Shown here piece by piece: positions 1-4,266 of a DNA stretch of 4,266 nt. The DNA comes from a virus (lineage: Duplodnaviria > Heunggongvirae > Uroviricota > Caudoviricetes). Each line of letters starts with the position of its first letter. Positions within the stretch are counted from its first letter, which is position 1. Below the pieces are notes generated by a model, which did no database searches, was not told where the DNA came from, and saw nothing but the letters and a program-made list of their open reading frames with translations. The stretch lies in IMG/VR virus record IMGVR_UViG_2547132272_000018; one strand, written 5' to 3'. Made by a program: the position numbers and the translations under genes.

Positions 1-1
1 T

Positions 2-235
2 ACGCTACGTACTTCTCGGGGCGCTTACGTTTCTAACAGTGACACATCCCTGATCCGTTCGCTGTATCGCAATTTTACTCACCACTACATCAAGGCAAAA
101 CGCAGCATCGGCGTAGCAGCTGGTGAGAGTAAATCTGCAACAGAAATCATCGCTGTTTCTGGGGCGCGCTGCTGGGTGGGATTTGATCCTTCGCGTGGCG
201 TGGATAGTTCTGCCGTGTACGGAGTGCGTGCATGA
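2..235 (+). CDS. 5'-truncated hypothetical phage early protein, C-terminal 78 codons; stop overlaps the gene A start (ATGA)
   Basis: Frame 2 is open from the window edge to TGA 233..235, while the other two + frames hit stops within the first 51 nt. The stop overlaps ATG 232..234 of the next gene, a typical translational-coupling junction. No family recognised. Confidence 0.45.
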
Positions 236-2646
236 GCCATGCTGATATGAACAACTGCAGCGGCTTTAACGAGGCCGCCGCAGCATTCTCATGGAACAGC
301 CCGAAAAAGGCTATTAACCCTTATCTGGACCCGGCGGAAGTTGCGCCGGTTTCTGCGCTTTCAAACCTGATCACTCTGTACGCTGTCGATAACGAGCAGG
401 AACAACTGCGTCGCGAGGCACTGAGTGATCAGGTCTGGGAGCGTTATTTCTTTAATGAATCCCGTGATCCTGTCCACCGCGAAATGGAGCAGGATAAGCT
501 CATTAGCCGGGCAAAGATGGCGCATGAGCAGCAGCGTTTTAATCCAGACATGGTCATTCTGGCTGACGTCAACGCCCAGCCTTCCCATATCAGCAAGCCG
601 CTGATGCAACGTATTGAATATTTAAGCAGCTTGGGCAGGCCAAAGGCTTATTCCCGCTATTTGCGTGAGACGATTAAGCCATGTCTGGAACGACTGGAGC
701 ATGTACGCGACAGCCAGCTATCTGCATCTTTTCGTTTTATGGCAAGCCATGAAGGGCTGGACGGTCTGCTGATCCTGCCTGAAATGAGTCAGGATCAGGT
801 GAAACGCCTGTCTACCCTTGTCGCTGCGCATATGAGCATGTGTCTTGATGCCGCTTGTGGTGATTTGTACGCCTCCGATGATGTTAAGCCAGAAGAAATC
901 CGCAAGACATGGGAAAAGGTGGCTGCAGAAACCCTGCGACTGGATGTCATACCGCCTGCGTTTGAGCAACTCCGCCGGAAAAGAAACCGCCGCAAACCTG
1001 TGCCTTATGAACTCATTCCGGGTTCGCTGGCGCGTATGCTGTGCGCCGACTGGTGGTATCGGAAATTATGGAAGATGCGTTGCGAATGGCGAGAAGAGCA
1101 GTTGCGTGCTGTCTGCCTGGTCAGCAAAAAAGCATCTCCCTATGTCAGCTATGAAGCCGTGATGCATAAACGTGAGCAGCGCCGTAAGTCGCTGGAGTTT
1201 TTCCGTTTTCATGAACTGGTGAACGAAGACGGCGACACGCTGGATATGGAAGATGTGGTAAACGCCAGCAGCAGCAACCCTGCGCATCGCCGCAATGAGA
1301 TGATGGCCTGTGTTAAAGGTCTGGAGCTTATCGCGGAAATGCGCGGTGACTGCGCCGTTTTCTATACCATCACCTGTCCGTCACGTTTCCATTCCACGCT
1401 AAATAACGGCAGGCCCAACCCGACCTGGACAAATGCGACGGTAAGACAAAGCAGCGATTATCTGGTCGGCATGTTTGCTGCATTTCGTAAGGCGATGCAC
1501 AAAGCCGGATTGCGCTGGTATGGCGTGCGGGTGGCTGAGCCGCATCATGACGGTACAGTTCACTGGCACCTGTTGTGTTTCATGCGCAAAAAAGACCGCC
1601 GCGCCATTACTGCATTGTTGCGTAAATTTGCCATCCGTGAAGACCGCGAGGAGCTGGGTAATAACACAGGTCCACGCTTTAAATCTGAGCTGATAAACCC
1701 GCGCAAAGGAACACCGACAAGCTACATCGCGAAATACATCAGTAAGAACATTGACGGGCGTGGTCTGGCTGGCGAGATCAGCAAGGAAACGGGTAAATCC
1801 CTGCGTGATAACGCTGAATACGTTAATGCCTGGGCGTCTCTGCATCGTGTTCAGCAATTCCGCTTCTTTGGCATTCCGGGGCGTCAGGCTTACCGTGAAC
1901 TGCGATTGCTGGCTGGTCAGGCGGCAAGGCAACAGGGCGACAAAAAAGCAGGTGCGCCGGTACTGGATAACCCGCGCCTTGATGCCATCCTGGCTGCTGC
2001 TGATGCTGGTTGTTTTGCCACCTACATCATGAAGCAGGGCGGCGTACTGGTTTCCCGCAAATATCACCTGATCAGAACCGCTTATGAAATCAACGAAGAG
2101 CCGACCGCCTATGGCGATCACGGCATTCGTATTTATGGCATCTGGTCACCCATTGCAGAGGGCAAGATCTGCACTCATGCCGTGAAGTGGAAAATGGTTC
2201 GTAAGGCCGTTGACGTTCAGGAGGCGGCAGCCGACCAGGGCGCTTGCGCCCCTTGGACTCGTGGCAATAACTGTCCCCTTGCTGAAAATTTGAACCAACA
2301 AGGGAAAGACAAATCAGCTGATGGGGATACCAGGACGGACATTACCCGCATGGATGACAAGGAGTTGCACGATTACCTGCACAGTATGAGCAAAAAAGAG
2401 CGCCGGGAACTGGCTGCAAGGTTACGCCTGGTGAAACCGAAACGGCGTAAAGACTACAAACAGCGAATTACAGACCATCAGCGACAGCAGCTCGTCTACG
2501 AACTGAAGTCCAGAGGATTTGATGGCAGCGAGAAAGAGGTCGATTTACTCCTTCGCGGCGGCAGTATTCCGTCAGGAGCAGGCCTGCGTATCTTCTATCG
2601 GAACCAGCGTTTGCAGGAAGATGATAAGTGGCGAAACCTGTATTAA
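232..2646 (+). CDS. A: P2/186-family replication initiation endonuclease gpA (rolling-circle HUH nickase)
   Basis: 804-codon ORF with GGAG (221..224) 7 nt upstream of the ATG. Contains the HUH metal-binding motif [13 protein letters not shown] (H444-W-H446, nt 1561..1569) and the twin-tyrosine motif [13 protein letters not shown] (Y498 and Y502, nt 1723..1737), both nearly identical to motifs I recall from P2 gpA. The N-terminal FSWNSP region also resembles P2 gpA. Confidence 0.93.
2248..2267 (+). other. Candidate origin of replication (gpA nick site) inside the gene A coding sequence
   Basis: GCCCCTTGGACTCGTGGCAA matches 15 of 20 positions of the P2 ori nick region as I recall it (GCGCCTCGGAGTCCTGTCAA). 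It encodes APWTRGNNC, which aligns with APRSPVNNC in P2 gpA. P2-family phages place ori inside gene A. The reference sequence is from memory and unverified. Confidence 0.3.
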
Positions 2647-2715
2647 TTACGCGGGTTAACAATTCGTGCTCTTAATAATACCAGGCATATCAGGCTGATG
2701 AACGTAAAAAAACGT

Positions 2716-2756
2716 TTTACATCAGTAAGATTATTATATACTGTGAATATAAACAG
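2716..2756 (+). promoter_or_regulatory. Putative sigma70 promoter of the SOS module, overlapping the LexA box
   Basis: TTTACA at 2716..2721; candidate -10 hexamers TATACT (2737..2742) or TATAAA (2748..2753, inside the LexA box). Spacing is not ideal for either pairing, so exact elements are uncertain. Confidence 0.4.
2741..2756. promoter_or_regulatory. LexA operator (SOS box)
   Basis: CTGTGAATATAAACAG is a perfect CTGT-N8-ACAG palindrome with an AT-rich spacer, 44 bp upstream of the ATG at 2800 and overlapping the candidate -10. This matches the LexA-repressed tum promoter arrangement of phage 186. Confidence 0.7.
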
Positions 2757-2799
2757 TGGTTATGTATACAGTGTTGCTTGTGGTGTCATAGGAGGAAAG

Positions 2800-2988
2800 A
2801 TGCAGGACTATTTTTTGGAGTCTTTGAAGCTCCAGCGCATTGATTTTTTTCTTAAGCTTGTAGCGGCTAGTGAGTGTAGTGATGAAGAGAAGGGGCTGGC
2901 TCTGCAGTGGGTTTCTGAATTGACTGATGAACTCATGGCAAAAATCAGAAGCCACGAATACAACCGCTCAATGGATGTCATCAGCTGA
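2800..2988 (+). CDS. Small SOS-module protein of 62 aa, possibly the N-terminal antirepressor portion of a Tum-like protein
   Basis: ATG 2800 is the first start downstream of the LexA box and is preceded by AGGAGG (2790..2795). It is the inner start of listed ORF 2698..2988. The TGA 2986..2988 lies 10 nt before the DinI-like start. No family recognised from sequence. Confidence 0.5.
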   Translation: MQDYFLESLKLQRIDFFLKLVAASECSDEEKGLALQWVSELTDELMAKIRSHEYNRSMDVIS

Positions 2989-2998
2989 GGTGACTTTT

Positions 2999-3232
2999 AT
3001 GCGCATTGAAATAATGATCGATAAAGAGCAGAAGATTAGCCAGTCTACCCTGGACGCCCTTGAATCCGAGCTTTACCGCAATCTGCGCCCCCTGTATCCA
3101 AAAACGGTAATTCGTATCCGCAAAGGTAGCTCTAACGGTGTGGAACTGACCGGACTGCAACTGGACGAAGAAAGAAAACAAGTGATGAAAATTTTGCAGA
3201 AGGTGTGGGAAGACGACAGCTGGCTGCATTGA
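2999..3232 (+). CDS. dinI: DinI-family SOS-inducible protein (Tum C-terminal-domain-like)
   Basis: 77 aa starting MRIEIMIDK and ending ILQKVWEDDSWLH, matching E. coli DinI (MRIEVTIAK ... ILQETWESADDWF) in the N-terminal block, the DALxxEL block and the C-terminal acidic-Trp block. SD GAGGTGA (2987..2993) lies 5 nt before the ATG. It is the inner start of listed ORF 2927..3232. Confidence 0.85.
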   Translation: MRIEIMIDKEQKISQSTLDALESELYRNLRPLYPKTVIRIRKGSSNGVELTGLQLDEERKQVMKILQKVWEDDSWLH

Positions 3233-3286
3233 TTTTGTCAATAGACGCTTGTTTTTACTAATCAAAAAGGGTTACATATGAGTGAG

Positions 3287-3319
3287 AGGCGATGTCAATC
3301 AGATATCGCCTTGTTTTTT
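3287..3319 (+). terminator. Rho-independent terminator ending the SOS module
   Basis: Stem 3287..3296 pairs with 3302..3311 (AGGCGATGTC / GACATCGCCT-type, one G-U pair), 5-nt loop, then TGTTTTTT at 3312..3319. Confidence 0.6.
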
Positions 3320-3345
3320 GTCAAGAAAAGAATAATAGGCTAAAA

Positions 3346-4023
3346 ATGAAAATTAATAATGTAGCGTTACCAATATCTCTTGCTGTAATCCTAACTGGTT
3401 GCGTGCCACATGCTTCTAACCGAAATATCACTGCTATTGAAGTGGTGAAGCCAGCTATTGGGCAAAGTGCTACCGCCTACATGGGCGATCCCATTATCAC
3501 ATCTGCTACTGGATTTAAAACGGACGTACTAGAACTTGGTGCGGCTAATGGTGCATTGTCTTCTATCGCTGCTGGTACATATTGCAGTGAGGGGAATGGA
3601 ATTTACCGCAATTATCATAACCCTCAAGCTGTTGCGTTAAAAAATCTCTATGGGCAAATCGGTAACTATGTTGATTATGTTAGTTACGATGCTGCAAAAA
3701 ATGAGATATCACCGCCAAATGGCACTTCTTATACTGCATCAGAAATTTCTATCAAACGTGTTCCTGATGGGCTGTGTCGAGTGAGTAATTCATTGGTTAA
3801 GACTATCGAATACAATGGAAATGCAGGCGGTGTAATGAAGTTCACCTATCGTGAATTTGCAAACGATATGGCTCGTGCAGCATTTACAACAGATTTTTCT
3901 GTAGATTCTAAGGGAAGTGATGTTATCGCTTACAAAGGTGCCAAGTTCAAAGTGAACAAGGCTGATAACTCGTCTATTTCTTATACAATTATTTCTGGCT
4001 TTGACAAGGCTGTCACGTTCTAG
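3346..4023 (+). CDS. Putative lipoprotein of unknown function, 225 aa precursor; prophage cargo
   Basis: Begins MKINNVALPISLAVILTGC: a basic n-region, hydrophobic core and LTGC lipobox, with Val rather than Asp at +2 (suggesting outer-membrane sorting). Weak SD AGG at 3337..3339. Visibly more AT-rich than gene A. Two further Cys residues, Tyr/Asn/Gly-rich, C-terminal Phe. The listed ORF starts at ATG 3292, but that start lies inside the upstream terminator stem and would bury the signal peptide. Confidence 0.7.
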   Translation: MKINNVALPISLAVILTGCVPHASNRNITAIEVVKPAIGQSATAYMGDPIITSATGFKTDVLELGAANGALSSIAAGTYCSEGNGIYRNYHNPQAVALKNLYGQIGNYVDYVSYDAAKNEISPPNGTSYTASEISIKRVPDGLCRVSNSLVKTIEYNGNAGGVMKFTYREFANDMARAAFTTDFSVDSKGSDVIAYKGAKFKVNKADNSSISYTIISGFDKAVTF

Positions 4024-4127
4024 GTTTCACGCTTACTGAGTATGTTACGATTTTGCACATTCTGCATAAACGCGCATGTCTATGCTGCATGAGATCGCAT
4101 GATCGTTTGAGGATCTTTTGTGTTAAG

Positions 4128-4151
4128 GCCCGCCAGTTCTGGCGGGCTTTT
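4128..4151 (+). terminator. Rho-independent terminator after the lipoprotein gene
   Basis: GCCCGCCAG (4128..4136) and CTGGCGGGC (4139..4147) form a GC-rich inverted repeat followed by TTTT at 4148..4151. Confidence 0.65.
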
Positions 4152-4196
4152 GCGTAGATCATGCAGGTGCATGAAAACCACTACATAAAGCGGGCA

Positions 4197-4215
4197 GGCG
4201 TGGCGGGGATACGAG
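4197..4215. other. Candidate cos site (19-nt cohesive-end sequence of a P2/186-family phage)
   Basis: GGCGTGGCGGGGATACGAG: the first 13 nt match the 186 cohesive end as I recall it (GGCGTGGCGGGGAAAGCAT) and resemble the P2 one (GGCGAGGCGGGGAAAGCAC). The position downstream of gene A and its accessory genes is where cos lies in P2-family genomes. Reference sequences are from memory. Confidence 0.5.
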
Positions 4216-4266
4216 CGCGCGTATTTGGTCGTTACTTAGGGAAGGTGCGAATAAGCAGGTCATTTC

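Follow-up and report, generated by a model that had tools for sequence, protein, structure and literature searches.

Does the 19-nt sequence GGCGTGGCGGGGATACGAG, read at positions 4197-4215 of the stretch of 4,266 nt analysed here (the window), constitute an intact cos site, and does it mark the junction between the early arm and the packaging arm of the phage? Both had been proposed from the letters of the DNA. Taking all our observations together, we hold with high confidence that 4168-4222 is the cos of a P2/186-type temperate phage (Peduoviridae) integrated in an E. coli chromosome, located in the middle of the gpA-to-portal hotspot and with insertion sequence (IS) ends on both sides. In our comparisons the closest relatives were E. 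coli HS phage 1 and Fels-2. The features on which the argument rests are listed in Table 1.

Table 1. Features of the window, and cargo found between cos and the portal gene in relatives
Feature	Position	Strand	Basis or content
IS66-family right terminal inverted repeat	1..28	n.a.	reverse complement GTAAGCGCCCCGAGAAG..., also given as GTAAGCGCCCCG...
dam (DNA adenine methylase), 3' part	29..235	+	100% identity to L017; annotation in relatives
P2 gpA-family replication endonuclease (A), 804 aa	232..2646	+	PF05840 Phage_GPA on identical protein; relatives' annotation
LexA-box-like site CTGTGAATATAAACAG	2741..2756	n.a.	upstream of orf62
orf62, conserved 62-aa ORF	2800..2988	+	phrog_698, E = 6e-38; annotated in all relatives
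DinI-family protein	2999..3232	+	Pfam DinI, E = 4.6e-23
Phage lipoprotein, 225 aa from ATG at 3346	3346..4023	+	lipobox LTGC
Terminator-like hairpin, Rho-independent (GGCCCGCCAG / CTGGCGGGC then TTTT)	4125..4151	+	fold, inverted repeat I1
Palindrome TCATGCA-gg-TGCATGA	4159..4174	n.a.	perfect 7-bp inverted repeat I2, right-end edge of core
P2-family cos core, 55 bp	4168..4222	n.a.	alignment with P2, 186 and P4
19-nt cohesive-end sequence GGCGTGGCGGGGATACGAG	4197..4215	+	identity to SEN8 and HS phage 1 cos; 186 and P2 similarity
TTAG target (4236-4239) and 27-nt ISKpn26 (IS5-family) end (4240-4266)	4236..4266	n.a.	IS copies
Cos-to-portal cargo, WWCOL-315			PIN-domain protein
Cos-to-portal cargo, Fels-2			565-aa protein
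Cos-to-portal cargo, HS			463-aa protein
Cos-to-portal cargo, SEN8			two genes
Cos-to-portal cargo, Cartapus			DUF4145 protein
Cos-to-portal cargo, L013, L014, L016			586-aa reverse transcriptase
Cos-to-portal cargo, S88, L015, L017			469-aa protein, PD-T7-1

The cohesive-end sequence and its 55-bp core

By comparing the 19-mer with the reference record of 186 (NC_001317), in which bases 1-19 carry the feature 'cos; cohesive end' (GGCGTGGCGGGGAAAGCAT), we found that 15/19 positions match and that bases 1-13 are all identical, as the sequence-only reading had stated, the mismatches falling at positions 14, 16, 17 and 19 of the 19-mer. The match to P2 (NC_001895), whose record annotates GGCGAGGCGGGGAAAGCAC as both cosL (1-19) and cosR (33575-33593), was 14/19. 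The exact 19-mer is annotated as cos in Salmonella phage SEN8, whose record begins with it and whose genome announcement prints 'cos site (ggcgtggcggggatacgag)' (PMC5427200). It was also reported by Zünd et al. 2021 as the cos 5'-GGCGTGGCGGGGATACGAG-3' at 926016-926034 in E. coli HS phage 1 (NC_009800), where it was mapped by read-start-site analysis and PhageTerm after mitomycin C induction (PMC8008629 Suppl. Table 4). The identification of the 19-mer as a cos site is therefore confirmed and, as a published site, it was already known twice over.

Then, we aligned the circularised junctions of 12 elements (the window, HS phage 1, Fels-2, WWCOL-315, S88, Cartapus, two Logan contigs, SEN8, P2, 186 and P4), and the functional unit extends beyond the 19-mer. 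It is a 55-bp core in which the 19-nt cohesive-end sequence is preceded by 29 bp on the right-end side and followed by 7 bp on the left-end side. In the window this core matches P2 at 41/55, 186 at 43/55 and P4 at 42/55 positions, and 37 of its columns are invariant across all 12 elements. Outside the core the similarity drops sharply on the 3' side, where the next 55 bp match P2, 186 and P4 at 15-17/55, that is at background level; on the 5' side the adjoining 55 bp match P2 at background (15/55) and 186 and P4 at 27-29/55 (about 50%). The block common to P2 and P4 measures exactly 55 bp in our analysis, and a shared P2/P4 core of 55 bp was reported by Ziermann & Calendar 1990, as their work is cited in PMC5694545. 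Moreover, the sequences of eight relatives part exactly 6-7 bp beyond the 19-mer, as those of P4 and P2 also do, which argues that the left-end side of the signal ends there and that the IS beginning at 4240 lies outside it.

The core is identical (55/55) to that of S88-type prophages and differs at a single base from that of HS phage 1 (54/55), so that the description of the site as intact also stands. The one difference is at 4222, the last core base, which is T in the window and in the S88-type prophages and C in every element with functional evidence; this base is a point against the reading of the site as a working cos. At the opposite edge, the palindrome at 4159-4174 may be a candidate protein-binding element; a resembling TGCA..TGCA dyad is found in 186 and in P4 as well.

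Could the likeness to 186 have arisen by chance, as a G+C-rich match with no packaging role? Such a reading could point to the fact that 13 contiguous bases are all that match 186, four of the last six positions being different. However, with at most one mismatch, GGCGWGGCGGGGA occurs a single time in the window, either strand counted, and in none (0/200) of the dinucleotide-preserving shuffles; the homology extends over 55 bp with its sharp 3' drop, and the exact 19-mer is the mapped cos of HS phage 1. Coincidence is thus refuted and keeps a vanishingly small probability. Nor do we give more than a negligible chance to the site being the cos of a P4-like satellite instead of a helper-type phage. 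P4 does have the same 55-bp core and diverges immediately after it, but the genes flanking the core in the window are of the P2/186 type (the gpA replication endonuclease, dam and a Tum-like DinI protein), the P4 genes alpha, sid, psu and delta are absent from the window, and the relatives run on into portal and terminase genes, so that this reading is refuted by gene content.

Cargo slots on both sides of cos

The cos of a P2/186-type phage was further supported by its surroundings. The upstream context of a P2-family cos is present in the window, with the gpA gene preceding the site. The downstream context, that is the portal and terminase genes, is found in relatives that are 100% identical over 29-4239, the window itself ending in an IS: over this span Logan contig L017 shows 100% identity to the window, and L015 99.98%. 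Portal and terminase genes also follow cos in HS, Fels-2, S88, SEN8 and Cartapus, one or two cargo genes separating cos from the portal gene in each case. The relatives with an identical A protein carry the integrase and CI upstream, and the portal, large terminase, scaffold, capsid and small terminase genes downstream, their terminase genes giving Terminase_6N/6C and Phage_term_smal matches. In relatives int and CI are located about 6-8 kb upstream, with host genes (rcdA/TetR) beyond.

The sequence-only reading had taken the whole interval 2647-4196 as the accessory region between the replication gene and cos. We could confirm that cos lies 3' of gpA and of small accessory genes, whereas the interval is not uniformly accessory. 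Its first part, 2647-3232, is a conserved module containing the LexA-like box, orf62 and the DinI/Tum-like gene, and 4073-4222 is a conserved block of terminator and cos. Between them, the block 3231-4073 is missing from the S88 prophage, which has 83 bp instead, and in L013 an HNH-like gene stands in its place, homology resuming at 4073. The block 3231-4073 is thus a replaceable cassette occupying a first cargo slot upstream of cos.

Its gene encodes a lipoprotein with a full-length match to phrog_1353 (E = 3e-105) and with no match among Pfam families or PADLOC defence models. The gene is also annotated in HS phage 1, Fels-2 and WWCOL-315, and in the first two it closely precedes cos. Because the integrase and CI genes lie upstream and the structural genes downstream in the relatives, whose prophage boundaries are far outside, the gene is phage-borne, as had been proposed, and since 3231-4073 behaves as a replaceable cassette it can be considered phage cargo. 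The open reading frame and 186 Orf97 both have 243 codons and the same position before cos; we tried and rejected homology between them (BLASTP E = 4.5, 19% identity over 68 aa). Expressed from a plasmid, 186 Orf97 blocks 186 infection.

The conserved module points to SOS control. The LexA-like box is the sole CTGT-N8-ACAG in the window, with 0.05 expected, and parallels the LexA site at 186 p95. LexA therefore probably controls the operon that comprises orf62, the DinI-like gene and the lipoprotein gene, as it does p95-tum-orf97 in 186, orf62 being the first gene of this putative SOS operon. The Fels-2 homologues STM2726-2728 were listed as one operon among mutagen-responsive ones, beside umuDC, ruvAB and dinF (PMC2225428), which fits SOS control without proving it. 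The DinI-like protein is 43% identical to residues 71-145 of 186 Tum, that is to its C-terminal half only. We considered orf62 as the missing N-terminal half of Tum and rejected it, as no similarity was found. If present, a Tum-like antirepressor function would be organised differently in this phage. The accessory operon is closed by the hairpin at 4125-4151 (-26.3 kcal/mol, z = -3.9 by folding), which a simple terminator scan missed and which is the positional analogue of 186 t95b, located between orf97 and cos. An Rfam scan of the window gave no match.

The claim that did not survive is that cos forms the direct junction with the packaging arm. In every relative examined variable cargo occupies a second slot, which separates cos from the portal gene (Table 1), so that the accessory hotspot straddles cos: cos is in the middle of the known gpA-to-portal hotspot and not at its edge. 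The 469-aa protein that fills this slot in the IS-free relatives identical to the window is anti-phage PD-T7-1 (PADLOC E = 3.5e-196; gene coordinates 14083-15492 in L015, 5998-7407 in L017 and 5165-6574 in L007), described as an anti-phage protein by Vassallo et al. 2022 (PMC9519451). We also noticed that relatives with the same A protein differ in this second slot, some carrying PD-T7-1 and others the 586-aa reverse transcriptase. The gpA-gpQ hotspot adjoining cos is published (PMC9122126; PMC9519451; PMC5694545), and a slot separating cosL from the Q homologue had been remarked earlier (PMC5694545). It was further suggested that cos ends promote cargo exchange (PMC9122126); variable DNA beginning exactly at the edge of the 55-bp core fits this suggestion.

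IS ends bounding the window

Both ends of the window turned out to be IS termini. Positions 1-28 match the dam gene of no relative and coincide exactly with the right end of a complete IS66 element (tnpA-tnpB-tnpC) in L020, where they stand directly after tnpC; the left end of that element is GTAAGCGCTCCG. The sequence is multi-copy in E. coli, and the IS66-family inverted repeat begins GTAAGCG. A divergent dam allele and a group II intron end were also considered for 1-28 and rejected, given the identity with this multi-copy IS66-family terminus. The IS66-family end cuts dam on its 5' side just upstream of the A gene, with which dam overlaps translationally, and the truncation may affect A expression.

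At the other end, 4240-4266 is GGAAGGTGCGAATAAGCAGGTCATTTC, and the ISKpn26 terminal repeat is GGAAGGTGCGAATAAGC... at a TTAG/CTAA target. At the insertion point the IS-free relatives run ...ACTTAG followed by CTTTTTTTT. IS copies that match the 35-mer 4232-4266 number in the thousands, and the match in strain HZ13 adjoins an ISKpn26 transposase gene splitting an insulinase gene, with TTAG at both ends. In the window the ISKpn26 end lies 17 bp past the cos core, which corresponds in the relatives to about 75 bp upstream of the PD-T7-1 start. Since all relatives already diverge at 4222, ISKpn26 most likely leaves cos function untouched.

The two IS ends raise the question whether the cos is a relic, left in a prophage fragment that is defective or has been rearranged, unlinked from terminase and head genes and never used. 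Such a relic would be bounded as the window is, by IS termini at both ends, one of them truncating dam just upstream of A. In addition, neither junction was present in any collection searched: the ISKpn26 junction had 0 matches in 5,426 complete E. coli genomes, species-representative genomes and metagenome contigs, the IS66 junction had 0 matches in the same 5,426 genomes and in species-representative genomes, and plasmid records gave no match across either junction. However, the same data are accounted for if each IS simply inserted into a prophage that is otherwise complete. Between the IS ends the DNA has 100% identity to complete prophages, which argues for a recent event and against decay; the TTAG at which ISKpn26 sits is a typical target and lies in non-coding DNA, and with an extra 1.2 kb the genome would still be about as large as those of Fels-2 (33.7 kb) and SEN8 (35.2 kb). 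Because the block is perfectly identical to complete prophages, we favour recent simple insertions and regard a relic as unlikely, though deserving some weight; the two IS ends call for caution before the copy in the window is called an intact inducible prophage. Far more doubtful, and offered as speculation, is the idea that the IS-bounded 4.2-kb block, with gpA, the putative SOS module, the lipoprotein gene and cos, left the rest of the prophage as a unit that resident P2/Fels-2-type helpers could package in the manner of P4, or, in a milder form, that ISKpn26 alters PD-T7-1 expression. In P2 and 186 the replication origin lies at the homologous position within gpA.

Most of the window is also matched by several small records deposited as plasmids, namely NZ_CP019275.1 (37 kb), NZ_CP019246.1 (45 kb) and NZ_CP019279.1, which may instead be circular forms of this phage type after excision.

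Predicted packaging and place within the P2/186/P4 cos family

With a cos of the P2/186 type as the preferred reading, packaging can be modelled on these phages. Upon induction the phage genome would circularise, and the terminase, composed of homologues of P2 gpM and gpP, would recognise the 55-bp core of the replicated circular genome. Two nicks 19 bp apart are predicted, at 4196/4197 on the top strand and at 4215/4216 on the bottom strand. Both their positions and the resulting 5' overhangs are taken from the annotation of 186, whose record states 'top strand cut at 5' end and bottom strand cut at 3' end'. One genome length would then be packaged, giving virion DNA with 19-nt 5' cohesive ends that would re-anneal on infection. 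In the lysogen, cos would remain uncut and internal, since integration uses attP elsewhere, next to int. Cutting of cos in the copy carried by the window is thus a prediction, the published mapping concerning the identical 19-mer in HS phage 1. A GCGCGC/CGCGCG palindrome is found at 4215-4221, at the predicted bottom-strand nick.

The site is predicted to work like, and is a member of, the cos group of HS phage 1, SEN8 and Fels-2, and more broadly belongs to the P2/186/P4 cos family. Within the narrower group the 19-mer is the same and the 55-bp core matches at 53-54/55, and HS phage 1 and Fels-2 share with the window the upstream terminator and the lipoprotein gene. The layout of the HS prophage is that of the window, with the replication endonuclease, the 62-aa ORF, the DinI-like gene, a 225-aa hypothetical protein and the 19-mer in turn, and the printed HS phage sequence is identical through the terminator and cos flank of the window (PMC8008629 supplement). 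The window differs from these three phages by the T, in place of C, after CGCGCG, by other cargo downstream of cos and by its ISKpn26 end.

The right end of 186 resembles the window in having a LexA box (p95), a DinI/Tum-like gene, a 243-codon ORF, a terminator (t95b) and cos. In contrast, 186 carries Orf97 before cos where the window has an unrelated lipoprotein, its portal gene directly follows cos, and it has a full Tum where the window has a DinI-like C-terminal half and a separate 62-aa ORF. P2 and P4 have the conserved 55-bp block in common with the window (41-42/55) and, as in P4, the similarity stops 7 bp past the 19-mer; P2 differs by its 14/19 cohesive end, by old and tin upstream of cos and by having no gene between cos and Q. 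Finally, the window is like the P2 gpA-gpQ defence hotspot (Rousset et al. 2022; Vassallo et al. 2022) in having variable cargo directly beside cos, whereas it spans the upstream slot only and its lipoprotein cargo matches no PADLOC defence model.

The finding is correct yet ordinary, and opens no new question. Its value is mainly for annotation: it establishes where the virion chromosome ends in a type of prophage that is very common in E. coli, 1,863 of the 5,426 complete E. coli genomes having a match to the cos-flanking stretch 4150-4239.
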